A stretch of 16,966 nucleotides of DNA, taken from the IMG/VR virus record IMGVR_UViG_2703718855_000004; one strand, written 5' to 3'. The stretch's first letter is position 1. Every line of letters begins with the position of its first letter. Below are positions 3,849 to 15,548 of the stretch, piece after piece. The notes beneath the pieces were generated by a model that worked only from the letters and a program-made list of their open reading frames with translations, did not search any database and was not told the DNA's origin. This DNA comes from a virus. Lineage: Duplodnaviria; Heunggongvirae; Uroviricota; Caudoviricetes. The position numbers and the translations under genes are program-made.

Positions 3849-4368
3849 TCAGCAACCCCGGTATCAGTTCATCCAGCGCGGCTGCTTTGTTCATGGCTTT
3901 GATGATATCCCGTTTCAGGAAATCAACATGTCGGTTTTCCAGTTCCGGAAAACGCCGCTGCACCGACAGGGGGATCCCGTCGAGAATACTGGCAATTTCA
4001 CCTGCGATCCGCGACAACACGAAAGTACAGAATGCGGTTTCCACCACTTCAGCGGAGTCTCTGGCATTCTTCAGTTCCTGTGCGTCGGCCTGCGCACGCG
4101 TAAGTCGATGGCGTTCGTACTCAATAGTCCCTGGCTGGAGATCTGCCTCGCTGGCCTGCCGCAGTTCTTCAACCTCCCGGCGCAGCTTTTCGTTCTCAAT
4201 TTCAGCATCCCTTTCGGCATACCATTTTATGACGGCGGCAGAGTCATAAAGCACCTCATTACCCTTGCCACCGCCTCGCAGAACGGGCATTCCCTGTTCC
4301 TGCCAGTTCTGAATGGTACGGATACTCGCACCGAAAATGTCAGCCAGCTGCTTTTTGTTGACTTCCAT
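3823..4368 (-). CDS. nohD: Terminase small subunit Nu1 (lambda-type)
   Basis: 181-aa ORF MEVNKKQLADIFGASIRTIQNWQEQGMPVLRGGGKGNEVLYDSAAVIKWYAERD... is full-length and collinear with lambda Nu1. Its 3' end overlaps the gpA fragment start as in lambda. The symbol is chosen by analogy with K-12 cryptic-prophage naming. Confidence 0.85.
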   Translation of the reverse strand: MEVNKKQLADIFGASIRTIQNWQEQGMPVLRGGGKGNEVLYDSAAVIKWYAERDAEIENEKLRREVEELRQASEADLQPGTIEYERHRLTRAQADAQELKNARDSAEVVETAFCTFVLSRIAGEIASILDGIPLSVQRRFPELENRHVDFLKRDIIKAMNKAAALDELIPGLLSEYIEQSG

Positions 4369-4600
4369 TGTTCATTCCACGGACAAAAACAGAGAAAGGA
4401 AACGACAGAGGCCAAAAAGCTCGCTTTCAGCACCTGTCGCTTCCTTTCTTTTCAGAGGGTATTTTAAATAAAAACATTAAGTTATGACGAAGAAGAACGG
4501 AAACGCCTTAAACCGGAAAATTTTCATAAATAGCGAAAACCCGCGAGGTCGCCGCCCCGTAACCTGTCGGATCGCCGGAAAGGACCCGCAAAATGATAAT
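4369..4600. other. cos site (cosB, cosN, cosQ side), lambda-type; 12-nt cohesive-end sequence at 4546..4557
   Basis: The reverse complement of 4369..4577 reads ...CGACAGGTTACG|GGGCGGCGACCTCGCGGGTTTTCGCTATTTATGAAAATTTTCCGGTTTAAGGCG...TTTGTCCGTGGAATGAACA, matching the joined lambda right end and left end upstream of Nu1. Confidence 0.75.
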
Positions 4601-4756
4601 AATTATCATCTACATGTCACAACGTGCATCTACGCCATCAAACCACGTCAAATAATCAATTATGACGCAGGTATCGTATTAATTGATCTGCATCAACTTA
4701 ACGTAAAAACAACTTCAGACAATACAAATCAGCGACACTGAATACGGGGCAACCTC

Positions 4757-4951
4757 ATGTCAACGAAGAACAGAACCCGCAGAACAACAACCCGCAACAT
4801 CCGCTTTCCTAACCAAATGATTGAACAAATTAACATCGCTCTTGAGCAAAAAGGGTCCGGGAATTTCTCAGCCTGGGTCATTGAAGCCTGCCGTCGGAGA
4901 CTAACGTCAGAAAAGAGAGCATATACATCAATTAAAAGTGATGAAGAATGA
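4757..4951 (+). CDS. ylcI: Small conserved prophage protein (YlcI-like, DUF3950); possible ribbon-helix-helix fold
   Basis: 64-aa ORF MSTKNRTRRTTTRNIRFPNQMIEQINIALEQKGSGNFSAWVIEACRRRL... with a beta-strand, helix, G-x-S-x-N turn, helix pattern. Confidence 0.6.
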   Translation: MSTKNRTRRTTTRNIRFPNQMIEQINIALEQKGSGNFSAWVIEACRRRLTSEKRAYTSIKSDEE

Positions 4952-5115
4952 ACATCCCGCGTTCTTCCCTCCGAACAGGACGATATTGTAAATTCACTTA
5001 ATTACGAGGGCATTGCAGTAATTGAGTTGCAGTTTTACCACTTTCCTGACAGTGACAGACTGCGTGTTGGCTCTGTCACAGGCTAAATAGTTTGAATGAT
5101 TAGCAGTTATGGTGA

Positions 5116-5322
5116 TCAGTCAACCACCAGGGAATAATCCTTCATATTATTATCGTGCTTCACCAACGCTGCCTCAATTGCTCTGAATGCTTCCAGAGAC
5201 ACCTTATGTTCTATACATGCAATTACAACATCAGGGTAACTCATAGAAATGGTGCTATTAAGCATATTTTTTACACGAATCAGATCCACGGAGGGATCAT
5301 CAGCAGATTGTTCTTTATTCAT
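5116..5322 (-). CDS. ybcW: Small hypothetical prophage protein (YbcW-like)
   Basis: 68-aa [71 protein letters not shown], at the position expected in the DLP12-type gene order. Confidence 0.6.
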
Positions 5323-5607
5323 TTTGTCGCTCCATGCGCTTGCTCTTCATCTAGCGGTTAAAATATTACTTCAAATCTTTCTGTATGAAGATTTGAGCAC
5401 GTTGGCCTTACATACATCTGTCGGTTGTATTTCCCTCCAGAATGCCAGCAGGACCGCACTTTGTTACGCAACCAATACTATTAAGTGAAAACATTCCTAA
5501 TATTTGACATAAATCATCAACAAAACACAAAGAGGTCAGACCAGATTGAAACGATAAAAACGATAATGCAAACTACGCGCCCTCGTATCACATGGAAGGT
5601 TTTACCA

Positions 5608-6018
5608 ATGGCTCAGGTTGCCATTTTTAAAGAAATATTCGATCAAGTGCGAAAAGATTTAAACTGTGAATTGTTTTATTCTGAACTAAAACGTCACAAC
5701 GTCTCACATTATATTTACTATCTAGCCACAGATAATATTCACATCGTGTTAGAAAACGATAACACCGTGTTAATAAAAGGACTTAAAAAGGTTGTAAATG
5801 TTAAATTCTCAAGAAACACGCATCTTATAGAAACGTCCTATGATAGGTTGAAATCAAGAGAAATCACATTTCAGCAATACAGGGAAAATCTTGCTAAAGC
5901 AGGAGTTTTCCGATGGGTTACAAATATCCATGAACATAAAAGATATTACTATACCTTTGATAATTCATTACTATTTACTGAGAGCATTCAGAACACTACA
6001 CAAATCTTTCCACGCTAA
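5608..6018 (+). CDS. ybcV: Hypothetical prophage protein (YbcV-like, DUF1398)
   Basis: ORF track gives 5485..6018. I chose the internal start [47 protein letters not shown]... (136 aa), the length I recall for YbcV. The start is uncertain; 5485 and 5566 are alternatives. Confidence 0.65.
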
Positions 6019-6308
6019 ATCATAACGTCCGGTTTCTTCCGTGTCAGCACCGGGGCGTTGGCATAATGTAATACGTGTACGCGCTAAACCCTGTGTGCAT
6101 CGTTTTTAATTATTCCCGGACACTCCCGCAGAGAAGTTCCCCGTCAGGGCTGTGGACATAGTTAATCCGGGAATACAATGACGATTCATCGCACCTGACA
6201 TACATTAATAAATATTAACAATATGAAATTTCAACTCATTGTTTAGGGTTTGTTTAATTTTCTACACATACGATTCTGCGAACTTCAAAAAGCATCGGGA
6301 ATAACACC

Positions 6309-6602
6309 ATGAAAAAAATGCTACTCGCTACTGCGCTGGCCCTGCTTATTACAGGATGTGCTCAACAGACGTTTACTGTTCAAAACAAACCGGCAGCAGT
6401 AGCACCAAAGGAAACCATCACCCATCATTTCTTCGTTTCTGGAATTGGGCAGAAGAAAACTGTCGATGCAGCCAAAATTTGTGGCGGCGCAGAAAATGTT
6501 GTTAAAACAGAAACCCAGCAAACATTCGTAAATGGATTGCTCGGTTTTATTACTTTAGGCATTTATACTCCGCTGGAAGCGCGTGTGTATTGCTCACAAT
6601 AA
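6309..6602 (+). CDS. borD: Bor outer-membrane lipoprotein (lambda bor-type, serum-resistance moron)
   Basis: 97-aa ORF MKKMLLATALALLITGCAQQTFTVQNKPAAVAPKETITHHFFVSGIGQKK... with lipobox ITGC. It matches lambda Bor as recalled and lies opposite to the lysis genes as in lambda. Confidence 0.9.
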   Translation: MKKMLLATALALLITGCAQQTFTVQNKPAAVAPKETITHHFFVSGIGQKKTVDAAKICGGAENVVKTETQQTFVNGLLGFITLGIYTPLEARVYCSQ

Positions 6603-6610
6603 TTGCATGA

Positions 6611-6632
6611 GTTGCCCATCGATATGGGCAAC
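6611..6632. terminator. Palindromic hairpin between convergent bor and Rz
   Basis: GTTGCCCAT-cgat-ATGGGCAAC, a perfect 9-bp stem, lies between the bor stop (6602) and the Rz stop (6634). There is no strong U-tract on either side. Confidence 0.4.
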
Positions 6633-6633
6633 T

Positions 6634-7095
6634 CTATCTGCACTGCTCATTAATATACTTCTGGGTTCCTTCCAGTTGTTTTTGCATAGTGATCAGCCTC
6701 TCTCTGAGGGTGAAATAATCCCGTTCAGCGGTGTCTGCCAGTCGGGGGGAGGCTGCATTATCCACGCCGGAGGCGGTGGTGGCTTCACGCACTGACTGAC
6801 AGACTGCTTTGATGTGCAACCGACGACGACCTGCGGCAACATCATCACGCAGAGCATCATTTTCAGCTTTCGCATCAGCTAACTCCTTCGTGTATTTTGC
6901 ATCGAGCGCAGCAACATCACGCTGACGCATCTGCATGTCAGTAATTGCCGCGTTCGCCAGCTTCAGTTCTCTGGCATTTTTGTCGCGCTGGGCTTTGTAG
7001 GTAATGGCGTTATCACGGTAATGATTAACAGCCCATGACAGGTAGACGATGATGCAGATAACCAGAGCGGAGATAATCGCGGTTACTCTGTTCAT
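6634..7095 (-). CDS. rzpD: i-spanin Rz (inner-membrane spanin subunit)
   Basis: 153-aa product [55 protein letters not shown]... has an N-terminal TM segment and coiled coil. The start was chosen at MNRV, 4 codons inside the ORF-track start. It overlaps the endolysin 3' end. Confidence 0.85.
6693..6875 (-). CDS. rzoD: o-spanin Rz1 lipoprotein, embedded in the +1 frame of Rz
   Basis: 60-aa [63 protein letters not shown], with lipobox VVGC and a proline-rich body, lies entirely inside Rz in another frame. Confidence 0.8.
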
Positions 7096-7589
7096 TGCTG
7101 ACCCCACAAACAGATTTCACGCTCAATCTCACGACGAGTCATGAGACCTTTCCATTGCTTACCGCCAGCATATGTCCAGCGACGTAGCTGATCACATGCG
7201 CCTTTGATATCGCCCTGGTTTATTTTGCGAAGAAGCGTCGATGTTCTGAAATTGCCAGCACCCACGTTGTAAACGAATGAGTAAAGAGCGCCGCGCGTTG
7301 TTTCCGGTATATCGACTTTGATGTACGGGTTAATTTGTCTGGCGACAGTGGCAAGGTCTTTATTCAAGAGTGCTTTGCATTCTGCTTTGGTATACGTTTT
7401 ACCGAGCATGATGTCTTTTCCGGTGTGTCCGTGACATACAGTCCATACGCCAACGATATCTTTGTATGGTACGTAGCTGACACCTTCCAGACCATCGTTA
7501 CCACTTGGGCCAGTAATTAACACTGATGCTATAGCAATTGCTCCGCCACCAATAGCAGCAGCAACGGCTTTTCGTAATGATGGAGGCAT
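7092..7589 (-). CDS. rrrD: Endolysin (lysozyme R) with N-terminal signal-anchor-release-like hydrophobic segment, phage 21-type
   Basis: 165-aa [78 protein letters not shown]... has a Gly/Ala-rich N-terminal hydrophobic stretch and a lysozyme domain. Its start overlaps the holin stop. Confidence 0.9.
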
Positions 7590-7804
7590 TATTCACCTCT
7601 CGCAGCCTTGCGCTTATCTTCTTTAATCTTGAAATAAAGGTTTGTCAGGTACGTCAGCAGGCCAAATACCAGGCTACCCAGCACACCTATTGCTGCCCAC
7701 TGTGAGGGCGTGACTTTATCGAGCAGCTGTAAAAACCAGTAACCGGCACTACCTGCTGAGGTGCCATAGGCGACACCCGTTGTTAACTTATCCATGGATT
7801 TCAT
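7589..7804 (-). CDS. essD: Holin, phage 21 S-type (pinholin class), with dual-start motif M-K-S-M
   Basis: 71-aa product [71 protein letters not shown] with two TM segments. The ORF track extends upstream to 7849; I chose the MKSM start. Confidence 0.85.
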
Positions 7805-7930
7805 AACCCCACCTCGCAGACAAAGCGGGTGTAAATTGAGGGAATACAACGTATCGCAAAAAAGCAGAAACGTAACAGACTCGGAGTCAGTGAATAACTC
7901 AGGTATTGGGTTATCAGCTAATATCGAGAC

Positions 7931-7965
7931 TCAAAAAATGGAAAAACCCGCTCGACGGCGGGTTT
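7931..7965 (-). terminator. Rho-independent terminator upstream of the holin; candidate tR' of the late operon
   Basis: The minus strand reads AAACCCGCCGTCGAGCGGGTTT followed by TTCCATTTTTTG (stem ACCCGC/GCGGGT). It lies about 130 nt upstream of the holin start, where lambdoid phages place tR' between pR'/qut and S. Confidence 0.45.
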
Positions 7966-8390
7966 AAGCTGTGTGACGAAGTAACCACTCTTAACAGCAT
8001 AACCAATTTTTTACGTACGTAAACCACTAAATGATATTTGCGAGAATGCTACCGAGTATTGAAAACACCACTACAAATACATAAGCAAATCTCAACAAAT
8101 AACCAACAAATAATTTCCAGCGTTATTTTAGCTGGTTTAAATTGAATCTTCAAATTATAGAGCACTTATAAATAACAGCCATTAATATAAATTGGCTAAT
8201 AGATTTATTTTTATTCAGCCAAGAGCCATGAATAGGATTCGATAGAAAAAGTTCAGATAAAAATAGAGATCTACTTCACAAATCAAATGAGAAACCAAAA
8301 CTTACATCTTGAAATAATCACATTGATTAGATGAATATTTATCGCGCAGTGACATCATTTTTTAATAATAGTTCAAAAAAAGGGCTCACG

Positions 8391-9473
8391 ATGAAAAAAT
8401 TAACAGTGGCAATTTCTGCTGTAGCTGCATCAGTACTGATGGCGATGTCTGCTCAGGCAGCTGAAATTTATAATAAAGACAGTAACAAGCTGGATCTGTA
8501 CGGGAAAGTTAATGCTAAGCACTACTTCTCCTCTAATGATGCAGATGATGGTGATACTACTTATGCCCGTCTTGGCTTCAAAGGTGAAACCCAAATCAAC
8601 GATCAACTGACTGGTTTCGGTCAGTGGGAATATGAATTCAAAGGCAACCGCGCTGAATCTCAAGGTTCCTCCAAAGATAAAACCCGTCTTGCCTTCGCTG
8701 GCCTGAAATTCGGTGACTACGGCTCCATCGATTATGGCCGTAACTACGGTGTAGCATACGATATTGGTGCATGGACCGACGTTCTGCCAGAATTCGGTGG
8801 CGATACCTGGACCCAAACAGATGTATTCATGACTGGTCGCACCACAGGTGTTGCAACTTATCGTAACAATGACTTCTTTGGTCTGGTTGATGGTCTGAAC
8901 TTTGCTGCTCAGTATCAGGGTAAAAATGACCGCACTGACGTAACTGAAGCTAATGGTGATGGTTTCGGTTTCTCCACTACTTATGAGTATGAAGGATTCG
9001 GTGTAGGTGCAACCTATGCTAAATCTGACCGCACTAATAATCAGGTTATCTACGGTAACAACAGCCTGAATGCATCTGGTCAAAATGCTGAAGTATGGGC
9101 AGCTGGTCTGAAATATGATGCGAACAACATCTATCTGGCTACCACCTATTCTGAAACCCAGAACATGACTGTTTTTGGTAATAACCATATTGCCAACAAA
9201 GCACAAAACTTCGAAGTAGTTGCACAATATCAGTTCGACTTCGGTCTGCGTCCGTCCGTTGCTTACCTGCAATCTAAAGGAAAAGACTTGGGTGCGTGGG
9301 GTGATCAGGACCTGGTTGAATATATTGATGTAGGTGCAACCTATTACTTCAACAAAAATATGTCCACTTTTGTTGATTACAAAATCAACCTGATTGATAA
9401 GAGCGATTTCACGAAAGCATCTGGCGTTGCTACCGATGATATCGTTGCTGTAGGTATGGTTTACCAGTTCTAA
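8391..9473 (+). CDS. nmpC: General porin of the OmpC/OmpF/PhoE family, prophage-encoded (NmpC/Lc-type), apparently intact
   Basis: 360-aa product [23 protein letters not shown]|[23 protein letters not shown]... has a signal peptide, the porin N-terminal motif, and a C-terminal ...GMVYQF with terminal Phe typical of OM beta-barrels. The start was chosen at 8391, not the ORF-track 8331. Confidence 0.9.
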
Positions 9474-9636
9474 TTTGATTACTAAAAGATATGTTGCGGG
9501 AGGCTTTGCCTCCCCAACATATAAGTGGCTCCCTCAAGCCACTTCCTTTAGGAGCACAACCTTGCTTCTAACTATATAAACCTTCTGTTATATATTACCC
9601 TTTATTTTTGGGGGCGTCTCAACGCCCCATTTTTAA
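9474..9636 (+). ncRNA. Structured 3' region downstream of the porin gene; possible IpeX-like small RNA (tentative)
   Basis: Three consecutive hairpins: ATGTTGCGGGAGGC-tttg-GCCTCCCCAACAT (9491..9520), AGTGGCT-ccctca-AGCCACT, and the terminator GGGGCG-tctcaa-CGCCCC plus ATTTTT. A porin-regulating sRNA (IpeX) is reported at the 3' end of nmpC in DLP12. The identity is from memory and the ends are not mapped. Confidence 0.3.
9603..9636. terminator. Bidirectional rho-independent terminator between convergent nmpC and Q genes
   Basis: TTATTTTTG-GGGGCG-tctcaa-CGCCCC-ATTTTT: a GC stem flanked by T-runs on both strands. Confidence 0.65.
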
Positions 9637-9661
9637 TAATTTTTAGTAAACAATTGGCATA

Positions 9662-10045
9662 TTAATTAGAGTTATTAACAACGATATCCATCTCTAACCG
9701 GATATCTAATGCCATTAACATCCCTTCAATTATACCCTCAGCCTTCTGTAACCTTTTCCCGATATAACCATCAGAGCAGCAATGCTTACCTGCCAGTGAC
9801 ATGAATGTCATACCGACTACATAATAATCTACTAATAAATCGTGCAAATCGCTGTTGTTCTTTTTCAGACGGGCCATGCACCCGCAAATGATCATCGCGT
9901 CATCGTCACAACATTGCGGGCGAGATTTTACTTTTGAAGTAATTAATCCCTTAAAACCGGCGGCAATGGACGACCAGGTCACATCTTCATGATTATTAGC
10001 CGCCCACGCTCCCCAACGCTCAAGAACCATCTGAATATCACGCAT
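9662..10045 (-). CDS. quuD: Late-gene antiterminator Q (phage 82/21-type, QuuD-like)
   Basis: Product [71 protein letters not shown]... (127 aa from the second Met; the ORF track starts 5 codons upstream). It has Cys-rich zinc-binding motifs and sits downstream of rusA as in DLP12. Confidence 0.85.
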
Positions 10046-10130
10046 CAACTTACTCCACAAAAATCAGACCAGAACGCCAATTACAAGCAAAAATCAATAA
10101 AACAGTATTAGTTGATTGTTATCTCTGACT

Positions 10131-10253
10131 TCATACTCCTGCTCCTGTCAGGGTTTTGGCGTAATTCCTCAGTATTCGGTAATCGGTCAAAACAGAACTG
10201 GGGAAACGATATAAGCGCAGGCGCATCCAGCGGTGGCGAAGAAGTTCTGCCAT
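10131..10253 (-). CDS. Small ORF between rusA and Q (YlcG-like position)
   Basis: My translation: MAELLRHRWMRLRLYRFPSSVLTDYRILRNYAKTLTGAGV (40 aa), below the ORF-track cutoff. Called on position only. Confidence 0.35.
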   Translation of the reverse strand: MAELLRHRWMRLRLYRFPSSVLTDYRILRNYAKTLTGAGV

Positions 10254-10267
10254 ATTAAACTCAAACA

Positions 10268-10630
10268 TCATTCATTCCCCATTTCGGTGATGGTCAGTTC
10301 CAGCCTCCCACCTTTGGTAACAGGCATCTTCACAACGCGGTAATCAACGACCTGAGCATCATCCAGCCAGAAACCTGCTTTGGTGAGTGCGTCAAAAGCG
10401 GCTTTTTGCAGATTATCCAGGTCACGGCGACGGCGATCCGGCATGTGGCACTCAATACGGATTTTCACTGGCATAGCCAGGCCGATATCCAGCATTGCGT
10501 TTTTAATGATTCGGGTGACGTTATCGCGGTATGCCTGCCCTTCTGCGCTGATGTGTGTGCGCCCGCGATTATGGCGGTAATAGCGATTATTGCTCGGAGG
10601 CCAGGGTAATGTGATGCTGTAGGTATTCAC
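10268..10630 (-). CDS. rusA: Holliday-junction resolvase RusA
   Basis: 120-aa [123 protein letters not shown] matches RusA. Confidence 0.92.
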
Positions 10631-10917
10631 GCCTTAATAACCCCCTCTTTCAGCCAGATAACCTGTGTTCTCGCCATACCTTCCAGCGCGCATTCTTTTG
10701 CATATGCAGCATCGACAAAATGTGTGCGGCGGTCGATTTCGTCGTGGCAGGCAGAACATGCAATGGTGGCAATCAGGTCTGGCGGTTTCGTACCGGTGCC
10801 GCACAATCCAGTCAGCCGGATATGTGCCAGTACAGACGTTTCAGGGTTGCCATTACATACGCCAGGGATTCTTACCTGGCATTCCCGACCACGCGCTGCT
10901 TTTCTCAAATCAGCCAT
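10627..10917 (-). CDS. ybcO: Nin-region protein YbcO (DUF1364, Cys-rich putative nuclease)
   Basis: 96-aa product [64 protein letters not shown]... (start 13 codons inside the ORF-track start). It overlaps rusA by 4 nt. Confidence 0.85.
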
Positions 10918-11072
10918 GACTCCTCCTTGCTGCCAGTCGCAACCATTTTTTATCAACCAGGCTGGCGGTATATCCGAGCAGTGTTGGTATTTCGGAAGGC
11001 TTCAGCTCCGGTTTACGCTTACGACGATTTGGTACTCTGTAGATGTGTCCGTTCATGACACGAATAAGCGGT
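10902..11072 (-). CDS. ninE: NinE protein
   Basis: My translation: [56 protein letters not shown] (56 aa). Its 3' end overlaps the ybcO start by 16 nt. Confidence 0.75.
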
Positions 11073-11079
11073 GTAGCCA

Positions 11080-11535
11080 TTACGCCTCCTGTTTGTCGCG
11101 GAGCTGCTGGAACTCGCAGCTCTGCGGAATAGTCAGGTGGCAGCCAATATTCACCGCCCAGGCTTCAACCTTACACAGGAAGATATACATCTCTCCGGTA
11201 TCAAGATCGGAGGTATGGCGTAACGACTGGATAGTAGTGATTTCGCCGGTTACGACATCAACCAGGTCCTTGGTTTCATAACCGAGGTATGTGTGTTTGA
11301 GAGCATCTTTTACCCATGCTGCGGTAGCGAACGATTTCCCCCTGCTGATGAGGTATTCACTGATTTCGCTGTACCACATGTGGCTGAGTGCATTCTGGGA
11401 AAGACTGCGTTTCTCACGCCACGGTTTAAGCACCATGCGAAAGCATTTTCCGTCCTCCAGATAAGGCTGGATCTGCTGGCCGATAGCGGTGAAGTTACCG
11501 CGATGCAGTTTGATGCCATCTTGTGGTAGGTTCAC
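11080..11535 (-). CDS. ybcN: NinB-family recombination protein (YbcN-like)
   Basis: 151-aa ORF containing ...[20 protein letters not shown]..., comparable to the R-x-RSLDQN motif of lambda NinB. It heads the ninE-ybcO-rusA cluster. Confidence 0.8.
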
Positions 11536-11725
11536 GCTTCACCTCCGCAGAGGTCAGACGCTGGATGCAAAAAATCGCAGGTGCATTTCTGCATCTGTGA
11601 AGGGAGAAGAGAGTTTGGATTGTATGTGCGCATAAACGTCCCCGTTTAGCGCAGAAGTCACCGGAGTTGTTCAAGCTCCGATGACTTTATTATTACGAAT
11701 TGATTTTACAAAATCAAAAGGTATG

Positions 11726-12178
11726 TTAGTGACGCGGGTCTGTTATTATGCGAGAAGGGTTTCCGTATAAAACAAGGACCTTACTTCCTTGAGTAAATAA
11801 CGGATCTTTGCCTTGAACAATGGTCATTAAATTCCCATTCTCAGTTTCGACAACATATTCCATGCCTGTTTGTTTTGTTGCTGAAGATTCGATTGCTGCC
11901 CCGGCAATACCACCAATGACTGCACCACCAACGGCACCAACGATATTAGAACGAACTCCCCCACCAAGCGCAGAACCAGCGGTTGCCCCCACGGCAGCCC
12001 CAGCAGTCCCGCCTAACGCGGAAGTCCCACTGATATCAACCCCCCTAGCACTAATAACTGTACCAGCGATAGTTCGATTAACCATGCCCACAGAGCCAAC
12101 AGAATAACTATTTGGCGATATATTTTGTGCGCATCCAACCAACACTAAGAGTGGAGCAATTACGAATAATCGCTTCAT
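11726..12178 (-). CDS. Outer-membrane lipoprotein with glycine-zipper domain, SlyB/Pcp-like
   Basis: 150 aa. Signal peptide with lipobox LVGC, then a long Gly/Ala zipper (GGTAGAAVGATAGSALGGGVRSNIVGAVGGAVIGGIAGAAI), then a C-terminal segment GMEYVVETENGNLMTIVQGKDPLFTQGSKVLVLYGNPSRI that aligns by eye with the E. coli SlyB C-terminus. The start overlaps the upstream gene's stop (ATGA). Confidence 0.8.
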   Translation of the reverse strand: MKRLFVIAPLLVLVGCAQNISPNSYSVGSVGMVNRTIAGTVISARGVDISGTSALGGTAGAAVGATAGSALGGGVRSNIVGAVGGAVIGGIAGAAIESSATKQTGMEYVVETENGNLMTIVQGKDPLFTQGSKVLVLYGNPSRIITDPRH

Positions 12179-12735
12179 TTAGCTACCCTAACAGGAAACA
12201 TTGGACGAGAAAGATCAACACTTTCTAATGCTTGCAAGAACTGCGTTATGTTGTTTTGCACCGCGCGATTAACAGATTCGCGTGCTCGAACAATACCGTA
12301 GAATGCGTAACTGGCTGGAACAGTACCGGTAGACTCAATATCCTGCGTATATATAATATCACCATTCGCACGGTTGATTATTTCATACCTTGCAATTGCT
12401 TTAGTTGTCATTGAAACACCAAAAGCAGGAACGTCAAGAGCCAACACTTTAACATTTAAGCTAACCGTATTTGGTGAACTATCACGAAAAATAGTCATTC
12501 GGTCGAGTGCTTCCTGCAAAGATTCACGCCAAATTGGAGTTATAGCCTCCATACCAGCAGTGATATCCCCTTTCTGCTCATCTGGACGAGCAAGTGATAC
12601 CGTTAATGACTTAATTTCAGCATCTATTTTTTTCTGGCTAACTCCCACGTTAGGTGTTGAAAAATTCAATGGTGGCACACTAGCGCAACCTGTTAAAGAA
12701 CCAATAATCATGGCTAATAATATTATCTTCTTCAT
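12175..12735 (-). CDS. Uncharacterized lipoprotein, first gene of a two-gene lipoprotein operon
   Basis: 186 aa. MKKIILLAMIIGSLTGC|ASVPP... has lipobox LTGC and a Shine-Dalgarno-like AAGG 8 nt upstream. I recognise no family. It is translationally coupled to the SlyB-like gene. Confidence 0.75.
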   Translation of the reverse strand: MKKIILLAMIIGSLTGCASVPPLNFSTPNVGVSQKKIDAEIKSLTVSLARPDEQKGDITAGMEAITPIWRESLQEALDRMTIFRDSSPNTVSLNVKVLALDVPAFGVSMTTKAIARYEIINRANGDIIYTQDIESTGTVPASYAFYGIVRARESVNRAVQNNITQFLQALESVDLSRPMFPVRVAK

Positions 12736-12991
12736 AAATTTACCTTATTGTTATAACCAAAGGAATTATAAAGTAAAAAAGTTCACTATCACTAGCCATT
12801 AACGACATCAATTTCAGAGAAACATGGTACTCATTTCCACAAATTTGACACAAGTCATTTTCACCTACATATTCCATCATACTTGATGCATATGTTATTG
12901 AAGCCTCTATCCTATCCGTTCATAATAGCAATAGTTACCCGGGTGATAGTACCTCTATGATTACTCGTCTTTCTGATTGATTGGATTAAAT

Positions 12992-13183
12992 ATGCGCGCC
13001 AAAATTTATCAACTTTCGTTATGGATATTTATTTCGTTTCTAGCGATCTATGCCTTTATTATCTATAAAGGTTCTTATATTGGAGTAGCATTGCATCAAA
13101 TTGCTTGGATCATCATTATTGCCTCTGGCTTGATTGCTAGGCTAACTAAACCAAAGCAAAAACCAATTTCGTCCAATAATTAG
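12992..13183 (+). CDS. Small hydrophobic ORF with two predicted TM helices (hypothetical)
   Basis: 63 aa from the ATG at 12992: MRAKIYQLSLWIFISFLAIYAFIIYKGSYIGVALHQIAWIIIIASGLIARLTKPKQKPISSNN. The ORF track starts at 12977 on a non-ATG codon. There is no convincing RBS, and the surrounding DNA is AT-rich and divergent from the lipoprotein operon. Confidence 0.3.
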   Translation: MRAKIYQLSLWIFISFLAIYAFIIYKGSYIGVALHQIAWIIIIASGLIARLTKPKQKPISSNN

Positions 13184-13340
13184 ACATGTATTAAAAAAAT
13201 GATATTTTTATGTACATAGTCTATTGAAAATTGCCGCGATAAAATGCCAACACCCGCTTCATCGCGGCACTCTGGCGACACTCCTTGAAAATCAGATTCG
13301 TGCTCACCTTTCCTTCCCGTTCTTCCCTGGTAGCGAACCG

Positions 13341-13789
13341 GTAATCATCCGATCTGCGTTACCGAGTGGATGGATGAATGCCGCCGCGAACCATTCAAAA
13401 CCCGCGAAGGCAGAGAAATTACGGGGCCGTGGCAGTCGCATCCCAAACGGATGTTACGGCATAAAGCCATGATTCAGTGTGCCCGTCTGGCCTTCGGATT
13501 TGCTGGTATCTATGACAAGGATGAAGCCGAGCGCATTGTCGAAAATACCGCATACACCGCAGAACGTCAGCCGGAACGCGACATTACTCCGGTTAACGAT
13601 GAAACCATGCAGGAGATTAACACTCTGCTGATTGCCCTGGACAAAACATGGGATGACGACTTATTGCCGCTCTGTTCCCAGATATTTCGCCGCGACATTC
13701 GCGCATCGTCAGAACTGACACAGGCCGAAGCAGTGAAAGCTCTTGGATTCCTGAAACAGAAAGCCACTGAGCAGAAGGTGGCAGCATGA
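13341..13789 (+). pseudogene. bet: bet (Red-beta recombinase), 5'-truncated; only the C-terminal ~149 codons remain
   Basis: From about 13341 the frame reads (G)NHPICVTEWMDECRREPFKTREGREITGPWQSHPKRMLRHKAMIQCARLAFGFAGIYDKDEAERIVENTAYTAERQ...KVAA, matching the C-terminal part of lambda Bet. There is an in-frame stop at 13331..13333 and unrelated sequence upstream. Confidence 0.85.
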
Positions 13790-14466
13790 CACCGGACATT
13801 ATCCTGCAGCGTACCGGGATCGACGTGAGAGCTGTCGAACAGGGGGATGATGCATGGCACAAATTACGGCTCGGCGTCATCACCGCTTCAGAAGTTCACA
13901 ACGTGATAGCCAAGCCCCGCTCAGGAAAGAAGTGGCCTGACATGAAAATGTCCTACTTCCACACCCTGCTGGCTGAGGTTTGCACCGGTGTGGCTCCGGA
14001 AGTTAATGCTAAGGCGCTGGCATGGGGAAAACAGTACGAGAACGACGCCAGAACCCTGTTTGAATTCACTTCCGGCGTGAATGTTACTGAATCCCCGATC
14101 ATCTATCGCGACGAAAGTATGCGCACCGCCTGCTCTCCCGATGGTTTATGCAGTGACGGCAATGGCCTTGAGCTGAAATGCCCGTTTACCTCCCGGGATT
14201 TCATGAAGTTCCGGCTCGGTGGTTTCGAGGCCATAAAGTCGGCTTACATGGCCCAGGTGCAGTACAGCATGTGGGTGACACGAAAAGATGCCTGGTACTT
14301 TGCCAACTATGACCCGCGTATGAAGCGTGAAGGACTGCATTATGTCGTGGTTGAGCGGGATGAAAAGTACATGGCGAGTTTTGACGAGATGGTGCCGGTG
14401 TTCATCGAAAAAATGGACGAGGCACTGGCTGAAATTGGTTTTGTATTTGGGGAGCAATGGCGATGA
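13786..14466 (+). CDS. exo: Lambda exonuclease (Red-alpha), full length
   Basis: 226-aa [68 protein letters not shown]...GEQWR is collinear with lambda Exo over its full length, with only a few substitutions from the recalled sequence. The start overlaps the bet stop (ATGA). Confidence 0.95.
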
Positions 14467-15548
14467 CGCATCCTCACGATAATATCCGGGTAGGCGCAAT
14501 CACTTTCGTCTACTCCGTTAACCTTTATATAAGAAACAATGGATATTACTGCTACAGGGACCCAAGGACGGGTAAAGAGTTTGGATTAGGCCGAGACAGG
14601 CGAATCGCAATCACTGAAGCTATACAGGCCAACATTGAGTTATTTTCAGGACACAAACACAAGCCTCTGACAGCGAGAATCAACAGTGATAATTCCGTTA
14701 CGTTACATTCATGGCTTGATCGCTACGAAAAAATCCTGGCCAGCAGAGGAATCAAGCAGAAGACACTCATAAATTACATGAGCAAAATTAAAGCAATAAG
14801 GAGGGGTCTGCCTGATGCTCCACTTGAAGACATCACCACAAAAGAAATTGCGGCAATGCTCAATGGATACATAGACGAGGGAAAGGCGGCATCAGCCAAG
14901 TTAATCAGATCAACACTGAGCGATGCATTCCGAGAGGCTATGGCTGAAGGCCATATAACAACAAACCCGGTCGCAGCCACTCGCGCTGCAAAATCAGAGG
15001 TAAGGAGATCAAGACTTACGGCTGACGAATACCTGAAAATTTATCAAGCAGCAGAATCATCACCATGTTGGCTTAGACTTGCAATGGAACTGGCTGTTGT
15101 TACCGGGCAGCGAGTTGGTGATTTATGCGAAATGAAGTGGTCTGATATCGTAGATGGATATCTTTATGTCGAGCAAAGCAAAACAGGCGTAAAAATTGCC
15201 ATCCCAACAACATTGCATGTTGATGCTCTCGGGATATCAATGAAGGAAACACTTGATAAATGCAAAAAGATTCTTGGCGGAGAAACCATAATTGCATCTA
15301 CTCGTCGTGAACCGCTTTCATCCGGCACAGTATCAAGGTATTTTATGCGCGCACGAAAAGCATCAGGTCTCTCCTTCGAAGGGGATCCGCCAACCTTTCA
15401 CGAGTTGCGCAGTTTGTCTGCAAGACTCTATGAGAAGCAGATAAGCGATAAATTTGCTCAACATCTTCTCGGGCATAAGTCGGACACCATGGCATCACAG
15501 TATCGTGATGACAGAGGCAGGGAGTGGGACAAAATTGAAATCAAATAA
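14457..15548 (+). CDS. int: Lambda-type integrase (tyrosine recombinase) with replaced N-terminus: 22 codons matching the start of lambda orf60a are fused in frame to Int from about residue 16
   Basis: 363-aa [25 protein letters not shown]|[27 protein letters not shown]... After the junction (nt ~14520) it is near-identical to lambda Int and retains the catalytic residues (R in VTGQRVGD, K in SKTGVK, H-x-x-R in [10 protein letters not shown] and Y in [11 protein letters not shown]). The start overlaps the exo stop. Confidence 0.88.

Follow-up and report, generated by a model that had tools for sequence, protein, structure and literature searches.

The window analyzed here is a 16,966-nucleotide stretch of DNA (IMG/VR record IMGVR_UViG_2703718855_000004), and this report concerns its interval 11536-13340. 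By megablast, the window is Escherichia coli chromosomal DNA holding a DLP12/lambda-like defective prophage. The interval carries two adjacent lipoprotein genes, one for a 186-amino-acid protein referred to here as LP186 and one for a 150-amino-acid paralog of the outer-membrane lipoprotein SlyB. Judged from sequence comparisons, this pair is an ancient unit co-inherited across Proteobacteria. In the window it belongs to a cassette of approximately 1.5 kb, a moron occupying the slot between the phage genes ren and ylcH/ybcN. The neighboring loss of the immunity and replication genes is a separate, adjacent, and later microhomology-mediated deletion in a small sub-lineage, and is ordinary prophage decay. 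Outer-membrane lipoprotein morons and SlyB were already known; the conserved LP186–SlyB-paralog unit is what is new, and literature searches on the protein accessions, the phage name, and SlyB together with prophage gave no description of the pair. The features that make up the pair are as follows.

12175..12735, minus strand: LP186 lipoprotein gene, 186 amino acids, with lipobox LTGC, Ala at +2, an N-terminal PPLNFSxPNVG stretch, and a beta-alpha-beta3-alpha domain
11726..12178, minus strand: SlyB-paralog lipoprotein gene, 150 amino acids, with lipobox LVGC, Ala at +2, a glycine-zipper helical hairpin, and a C-terminal beta domain
12175..12178, minus strand: ATGA stop/start overlap of the two lipoprotein genes, seen in the sequence, with the same 4-nucleotide overlap in 36 of 46 homologous loci

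The Lipoprotein Gene Pair

An earlier note, made from the sequence of the window alone, had described two coupled lipoprotein genes on the minus strand with an ATGA overlap, and this description holds at the coordinates above. Its view that both large products are lipoproteins, probably of the outer membrane, is also supported. The overlap implies, at the level of sequence, translational coupling of the two genes.

The conservation of the pair was scanned in one genome per species, giving 54 loci, of which 53 contain a full LP186 gene. The SlyB paralog lies immediately downstream of LP186 on the same strand in 47 of the 53, in alpha-, beta-, and gamma-proteobacteria and beyond. A stop/start overlap of any length is present in 39 of 46 loci, and every gap is 26 nucleotides or less. 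Divergence is correlated between the two proteins, with a Mantel r of 0.87 for their distance matrices, a value reached by 0 of 2000 permutations. No third conserved neighbor gene was found across the 53 loci; the other recurrent clusters considered for this place are antisense shadow open reading frames (ORFs) or neighbors specific to Stenotrophomonas.

Each protein has more than 500 homologs. Compared with Klebsiella oxytoca, the two genes show synonymous to non-synonymous codon differences of 86:30 and 83:37, which indicates purifying selection. Because of the many homologs and this synonymous excess, both lipoprotein ORFs are real genes.

Some loci depart from the usual arrangement. In Photorhabdus, a tract of repeated elements comes after a solitary LP186 gene. 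In one metagenome-assembled genome (MAG), a convergent gene for another glycine-zipper lipoprotein, of 150 amino acids and with a Pfam Rick_17kDa_Anti match, comes third after the pair (L067/L068, 8078-8530, minus strand), so that two SlyB-type genes surround LP186. In a Janthinobacterium MAG, the SlyB-paralog gene seems to be split by an insertion of approximately 1.35 kb (L046, 8567-8971 and 10324-10374), and an integrase-like ORF is present in the locus.

The 150-Amino-Acid SlyB Paralog

The 150-amino-acid protein begins with the lipoprotein signal MKRLFVIAPLLVLVGC-AQ. Cys16 is invariant in 37 homologs and the +2 residue is Ala, Thr, or Val; no inner-membrane retention residue is present at this position. 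The protein matches SlyB of PDB entry 7ojf with E=1.3e-14 (phmmer, residues 2-149 against 3-155) and is 33% identical to K-12 SlyB over its full length (BLASTP). The earlier note had proposed structure prediction, which was run and gave a SlyB fold for this protein and a PqiC/LptE/PelC-type fold for LP186. The AlphaFold2 model of the 150-amino-acid protein has one significant PDB match by Foldseek, 7ojf_A 'SlyB13-BamA', with E=1.5e-8 and template modeling (TM) scores of 0.61/0.65. Helices are predicted at residues 55-71 and 75-101, and Gly residues are invariant within residues 51-93.

The Pfam matches of the protein itself are below threshold (Rick_17kDa_Anti, 21.1 bits against a cut-off of 24.2; Gly-zipper_Omp, 16.9 bits), and many of its close homologs carry PF13488 or PF05433. 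In the PHROG collection it corresponds to phrog_13877. A lipobox signal, a glycine-zipper hairpin, and full-length homology in sequence and predicted fold to a solved SlyB are thus all present, and on these grounds the protein is classed as a full-length SlyB paralog. It belongs to a tight subfamily, with 62-77% identity between the window protein and the other members and 33-35% identity of the members to canonical SlyB.

SlyB itself (E. coli b1641; PDB 7ojf/7ojg) is a PhoP-regulated outer-membrane glycine-zipper lipoprotein. It shares with the window protein the lipobox, the N-terminal strand region, the Gly-zipper hairpin, and the C-terminal beta domain. The two differ in their surroundings, as slyB has anmK upstream and no LP186-like gene, whereas the paralog is always preceded by LP186 and translationally coupled to it. 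In E. coli the paralog is prophage-borne and adds to the slyB gene that the host already has. Under stress, SlyB assembles into rings around outer-membrane proteins and lipid; its relative YfgH likewise stabilizes the outer membrane (bioRxiv 10.64898/2025.12.22.696046). The presence of SlyB genes on mobile elements has been noted before, and they are expressed on megaplasmids.

The LP186 Family

LP186 is 55-70% identical from Enterobacterales to Xanthomonadales, Burkholderiales, and Rhodospirillales. The PPLNFSxPNVG stretch is conserved just after the lipid anchor, and the invariant residues include W69, R116-Y117-E118, R122, R150, R152-E153-S154, R157, Q160, and N162. LP186 has no Pfam match at E≤1, PF03886 included, and its NCBIfam hits are at the level of the signal peptide only. 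By sequence, it represents a strongly conserved, uncharacterized family without a Pfam model.

The AlphaFold2 model of LP186 is confident, with a predicted local distance difference test (pLDDT) score of 86.7 and a β-α-β3-α layout. The predicted fold resembles those of PqiC, LptE, and PelC, and the comparison made with PqiC/DUF330 in particular showed the same fold. PqiC/YmbA-DUF330 (XCC0632, 2iqi), LptE, and PelC are outer-membrane lipoproteins with a beta-alpha-beta3-alpha two-layer fold, and LP186 is 7-15% identical to them. Unlike these proteins, LP186 has no neighboring gene for an MCE, LptD, or PelB partner; its partner is the SlyB paralog.

Members of the LP186 family are widely labeled 'UDP-N-acetylglucosamine acyltransferase' (NCBI, UniRef, and the record of phage PhiR30_1), and newer PGAP annotation uses 'YajG family lipoprotein'. 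The first name would denote a cytoplasmic LpxA-type left-handed beta-helix with hexapeptide repeats, which conflicts with the lipoprotein signal of LP186, its alpha/beta two-layer fold, and the lack of a hexapeptide Pfam match. As for YajG (E. coli b0434), it is like LP186 a lipoprotein of approximately 190 amino acids, and the signal peptide and first strand align. Membership in the YajG family was rejected, with a PRK11627 match of E=0.17 and 11.4 bits (cut-off 242) covering residues 1-62 only and an hhalign comparison of the family profile with K-12 YajG covering 52 N-terminal columns at a probability of 77%. Both YajG and SlyB co-purify with LptDE (PMC12065857).

The Cargo Slot and the Adjacent Deletion

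The features in and around the slot are listed below.

11080..11535, minus strand: ybcN (NinB-like, DNA base-flipping protein), NCBIfam PRK09741 E=2e-83, Pfam NinB below threshold, annotated as ybcN in identical genomes
11532..11633, minus strand: ylcH-like ORF of 33 amino acids, annotated as a coding sequence (CDS) in identical genomes; ylcH lies directly upstream of ybcN in K-12 DLP12
11720..13247, no strand: variable cargo slot, ren to ylcH/ybcN, from blastn against K-12 DLP12, with low GC content and low GC content at third codon positions (GC3)
13221..13343, minus strand: 3' remnant of ren (last 40 codons and stop, 123 nucleotides), annotated 'protein ren, missing N-terminus' in identical genomes and collinear with the full PhiR30_1 ren to 13345
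13343..13345, no strand: deletion junction ren'/'bet with AAT microhomology, from blastn against PhiR30_1
13343..13789, plus strand: 3' remnant of bet (ORF from an internal ATG at 13370), C-terminal part only, Pfam RecT E=3e-9, TIGR01913 bet_lambda, annotated as N-terminally truncated

The slot was delimited by comparison with K-12 DLP12, where blastn homology to the window stops at 11719 and resumes at 13248. In K-12 the same slot holds 4.07 kb with emrE-ylcJ-ybcK-ybcL-ybcM. This DLP12 cargo is like the window cassette in filling the slot with sharp boundaries on both sides, and differs in consisting of wholly different genes and in its length (4.07 kb versus 1.53 kb). GC content is 0.33-0.35 over 12550-13300 and approximately 0.50-0.54 in the flanks, in line with the AT-rich right half reported in the earlier note; GC3 is 0.30-0.34 in the lipoprotein genes and 0.61 in ybcN and exo. 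The cassette therefore has three marks of a moron, namely a position between conserved phage genes, alternative cargo in relatives, and deviant composition, and the note's horizontally acquired prophage cargo is supported. A search for repeats that could represent att-like or IS-like ends of the cassette gave short chance repeats only. The cassette is composite, consisting of the lipoprotein pair and an unrelated small antisense gene of lambdoid phages, whose product has two transmembrane segments. The ylcH-like ORF belongs to the conserved phage backbone rather than to the cargo, and ybcN is the conserved phage gene that borders the slot on the left. Since this ORF and the ren remnant, both overlooked in the earlier note, also lie within the interval, the interval is not all cargo, and the slot proper is approximately 11720..13247.

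Intact relatives of the prophage carry the same cassette. It is present at 100% identity in PhiR30_1 (PV340558), an intact phage with host E. coli C, in the order int…exo-bet-gam-kil…cI-cro-cII-O-P-ren, then the small ORF, LP186, and the SlyB-like gene, and then ninB…. The complete prophages of E. coli O178:H19 2012C-4431 and SK6988 have the PhiR30_1-type arrangement, with cassettes 99.9-100% identical. In all three, the repressor, cro-like gene, O, P, kil, gam, and bet are retained beside the cassette. The cassette is assigned to the ren/ylcH-ybcN slot because these intact carriers have it beside a full ren…bet region and K-12 has other cargo there. The survey of other prophages proposed in the earlier note thus finds a recurrent cassette, in this slot rather than as a bet/nin replacement; a location at the rexAB/sieB position is not supported either, as the intact carriers have it between full ren and ylcH/ybcN.

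By blastn, window positions 4970-13345 correspond to 5290-13666 of the PhiR30_1 locus (L002), and window positions 13343-14520 to 20038-21215. The sole difference across the cassette region is a clean 6.37-kb ren'-'bet deletion with a 3-nucleotide (AAT) microhomology. It removed most of ren, P, O, the cII-like gene, the cro-like gene, the repressor, two ORFs, kil, gam, and the 5' part of bet. The resumption of bet homology, placed by the earlier note near 13341, is found at 13343-13345. The note had held the whole immunity and replication block to be absent, which is correct for gam, kil, cIII, N, rex, cI, cro, cII, O, and P, and incorrect for ren, as its 3' remnant is kept at 13221..13343.

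Of 5426 complete genomes, 280 (5%, E. coli 042 among them) have the cassette, more than 3800 have the slot flanks, and 19 have the exact ren'/'bet junction. All 280 E. coli cassettes are at least 99% identical, full length, single-copy, and chromosomal; one IS3-interrupted copy was found among 40 sampled rows. Strain 38 has a different deletion (P'-'bet), with full ren and an untouched cassette.

These comparisons decide against the central claim of the earlier note, that the cassette took the place of the immunity/replication block, in a single replacement event. That claim drew on the arrangement in the window, where the cassette alone separates the nin genes from what is left of bet. The ren remnant, however, lies between the cassette and the junction, identical cassettes adjoin complete ren-P-O-...-bet regions, the strain 38 deletion has another end-point, and the junction is found in far fewer genomes than the cassette. 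The replacement is already refuted and retains next to no probability.

Occurrence of the Pair in Other Genomes

In species other than E. coli, most copies of the pair are chromosomal, some of them amid housekeeping genes. It is among housekeeping genes in Lysobacter pythonis and one MAG, near umuDC and csp genes in K. oxytoca, in a toxin-antitoxin-rich island in Bordetella, and at the edge of an integrase island in Edaphovirga. An integrase lies within 8 kb in two of the 54 species loci, which is a lower bound, as the phage-hallmark scan of these loci covered lambdoid seeds and four integrases only.

In Salmonella enterica (L075/L076), the pair, with identities of 72% and 65%, lies in a prophage-like region with YdaS/YdaT, toxin-antitoxin modules, YbcO, and Q. 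A metagenomic phage-like contig with an integrase, Arc, and CP76 also carries it. Among 50,697 deposited phage records, PhiR30_1 is the single one with the pair in both DNA and protein searches, and no real LP186 homolog was found in the plasmid collection. Because of the varied chromosomal contexts together with the prophage-like settings in E. coli, Salmonella, and the metagenome, the pair is regarded, from sequence context, as a bacterial envelope module captured by temperate phages at least three times. The earlier note had named an ordinary chromosomal locus without prophage association as the outcome that would speak against it. This applies by half, the pair being mostly chromosomal outside E. 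coli yet recurring in prophage-like regions.

At the Salmonella locus, which belongs to the early region of a prophage of lambdoid-like type, the pair stands amid four toxin-antitoxin modules (ParE/PaaA2, PemK/MazE, YoeB/Phd, and HigB/helix-turn-helix), and the locus looks like a dense accessory-gene hotspot.

Expression Signals

A single candidate promoter for the cassette was identified.

12765..12792, minus strand: promoter-like site GTGATA-16-TATAAT, 10 of 12 consensus matches, approximately 30 nucleotides upstream of the LP186 ATG

No convincing terminator was found in the cassette by consensus and terminator scans. In PhiR30_1 the pair runs in the same direction as cro-O-P-ren-nin-Q, and lytic read-through of the early-right operon would therefore also express it. 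In the repressor-less remnant, the pair would have to rely on its own promoter.

Proposed Function and Alternative Explanations

The explanation favored here, with somewhat more confidence than doubt, is that the pair forms a two-lipoprotein outer-membrane complex that stabilizes the envelope of the lysogen, carried as a moron beside a separate deletion. Both lipoproteins would be sorted to the outer membrane, since neither has Asp at +2. The SlyB paralog would insert its glycine-zipper hairpin and form rings of the SlyB type, with approximately 11-13 subunits. LP186 would be its dedicated partner, held in fixed proportion by the conserved 4-nucleotide overlap, and might for example dock under or inside the ring or use its invariant Arg cluster to bind the head groups of lipid or lipopolysaccharide (LPS). 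The complex would stabilize or remodel the outer membrane, and the lysogen would better tolerate envelope stress, a lysogenic conversion like that of Bor. The envelope-acting role suggested in the earlier note is plausible because one product is a SlyB paralog, and the housekeeping contexts in Lysobacter and the MAG argue for a general envelope role over a phage-specific one.

Several points weigh against a stabilizing complex. The association of the two proteins is drawn only from synteny, coupling, and co-divergence, and co-divergence is also expected from plain co-inheritance. LP186 occurs without a downstream SlyB paralog in Photorhabdus (L040, L043), Budvicia (L044), Lampropedia (L051, L057), and one MAG, and may work there with the host's own SlyB or alone. 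The AlphaFold2 model of the SlyB paralog is moderately confident (pLDDT 71). Whereas slyB is driven via a PhoP box, none was found upstream of the paralog, with no match of two or fewer mismatches in 12736-12976; matches across the window are at chance (62 versus 56 expected). Promoter-like sites in the region are not above shuffle expectation, so the candidate cassette promoter is weakly supported. Repeated prophage capture could also point instead to a phage-directed role.

Such a role would be superinfection exclusion or receptor masking, the reading favored in the earlier note, in which SlyB-like rings targeted by LP186 enclose or occlude a receptor, or alter the surface, and thereby block phages, colicins, or conjugation. 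It is the strongest competitor to a stabilizing complex, although distinctly less probable. The cassette is cargo in at least three kinds of temperate phage (E. coli lambdoids, the toxin-antitoxin-rich Salmonella prophage-like region, and the metagenomic integrase/Arc/CP76 contig), and SlyB rings enclose outer-membrane proteins such as BamA, as in the title of PDB entry 7ojf. Cor, Llp, and TraT are phage and plasmid lipoproteins that act by exclusion. The TraT paper describes many chromosomal homologs co-opted by mobile elements, in which the LP186–SlyB-paralog pair is alike, and makes no link to SlyB, LptE, or PelC (PMC11733297). The range of the pair speaks in the other direction, as 55-70% identity across classes with differing receptors is not what a receptor-specific role would suggest, the species-representative loci are mostly chromosomal and twice amid housekeeping genes, integrases are close in few of them, and only one deposited phage record carries the pair. 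PADLOC matched none of its families to the three cassette proteins, their PHROG families are of unknown function, and no relative with a TM score above 0.4 was found in the viral structure library. The earlier note had recognized no described defense system among the products, which agrees with PADLOC; its suggestion of a novel defense system is unsupported.

The predicted fold of LP186 would also fit an accessory of lipid, LPS, or polymer trafficking, with LP186 as a PqiC/LptE/PelC-like docking or plug lipoprotein and the SlyB-like protein organizing the surrounding membrane patch. This is doubtful, as only the two lipoprotein genes are conserved and no MCE/PqiAB, LptD, PelB, or CsgF/E-type neighbor accompanies them; LP186 has no sequence-level match to PF03886 or other families, and its low identity to the structural matches is fold-level resemblance only. 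Improbable as well is passenger DNA of no benefit, co-packaged by illegitimate recombination and either silent (for example, H-NS-silenced) or decaying. The AT-rich, low-GC3 composition, the promoter signal at chance level, and the decay of the host prophage, with deletions at 13343 and approximately 14520 and structural genes lost, would suit it. Decay has nonetheless spared the pair, both ORFs being intact in degraded prophages though deletions end within approximately 100 nucleotides of the cassette, and the near-identical full-length E. coli copies and strong purifying selection across species count against it too.

A bolder reading, and an unlikely one, is a hitherto unrecognized two-component outer-membrane ring machine, with a SlyB-type cage and a dedicated PqiC/LptE-fold adaptor, captured repeatedly by temperate phages because it shields the lysogen surface through receptor sequestration or sealing against phage, colicins, or complement. 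If true, exclusion or protection modules acting at the envelope would gain a new class, and SlyB-family rings could be targeted by partner lipoproteins.

Small outer-membrane lipoprotein genes are familiar as accessory cargo of temperate phages and plasmids, for example Bor/Iss (serum resistance), Lom, Cor (FhuA-blocking exclusion), and plasmid TraT. The pair is like them in this respect, and bor and a porin gene are present in the same prophage. It differs in having no sequence relation to them, in being a two-gene unit rather than a single gene, and in its slot, the others lying elsewhere than ren/ninB. Protective rings of SlyB-type glycine-zipper lipoproteins were only recently shown, and these proteins have until now been treated as stand-alone. 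A SlyB paralog locked to LP186 by the 4-nucleotide overlap, adjacency, and co-divergence suggests a two-protein variant of the SlyB system. The LP186 family, misleadingly named in databases, thereby gains a testable role. With its recurrence in prophages of E. coli, in Salmonella, and in a metagenomic phage-like contig, the pair is a candidate factor of lysogenic conversion, serving either envelope robustness or exclusion.

The Small Membrane-Protein Gene

The remaining cassette gene lies to the right of the pair, on the opposite strand.

12992..13183, plus strand (longer ORF from 12977): small membrane-protein gene, 63 amino acids from the ATG, two transmembrane segments, from hydropathy and homologs

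The earlier note had described a divergent small ORF with two transmembrane segments, and two hydrophobic segments are indeed present. The gene is antisense to the phage early-right genes. Close copies occur in E. coli only. Four distant homologs were found among 1.8 billion representatives, and all start at the same Met. The best, a protein of 60 amino acids, is 50% identical with E=3e-14 (L072, 6001-6183; also L073 and L074). It is antisense between P-proximal small ORFs and a DNA_pol3_theta/DUF1367/YbcO/RusA/Q block in a different lambdoid prophage, one without the lipoprotein pair. None of the loci that carry the pair outside E. coli contains the ORF. Membership in the lipoprotein unit was rejected on both counts, its absence from those loci and the occurrence of a homolog without the pair, and the gene is an independent phage moron. 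Together, the homologs look like a small family of membrane-protein morons placed antisense within the P-nin region.

Other Features of the Prophage

The prophage lies between ybhB and ybhC, the lambda attachment site, and is a DLP12/lambda-like prophage in advanced decay. On the minus strand of the window, the gene order is tail-fiber and packaging remnants, ylcI, ybcW, ybcV, bor, Rz/R/S, a porin gene, Q, ylcG, rusA, ybcO, ninE, ybcN, and the ylcH-like ORF. Beyond the interval 11536-13340 follow the bet remnant, exo, int, and ybhC.

13786..14466, plus strand: exo (lambda exonuclease, 226 amino acids), an intact ORF with DNA 98% identical to PhiR30_1 exo

A second deletion junction lies at approximately 14519-14520. 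Homology to PhiR30_1 stops there, just downstream of exo (L002 21215), and at approximately 14520 a match begins to the attachment-site-proximal integrase region of another genome. The xis gene and the genes between exo and int are gone, so that exo abuts int. With the head and tail genes lost and this second junction present, the prophage is 'grounded'.

A perfect PhoP box, TGTTTAGGGTTTGTTTA, with 0 mismatches, is present at 6240-6256 on the plus strand and is the only exact match in the window. It lies approximately 53 nucleotides upstream of the start codon of bor (6309..6602, plus strand). PhoP/Mg2+ control of borD is known in K-12, and a PhoP box upstream of bor fits this.

The porin gene (nmpC/ompD-like; 8331..9473, plus strand) is one uninterrupted 380-amino-acid ORF in the window. 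A 99.9%-identical genome has it annotated as a pseudogene of ompC containing an internal stop, and the PhiR30_1 annotation gives two CDSs. The window and the 99.9%-identical genome differ by a single indel somewhere in 4008-13815.

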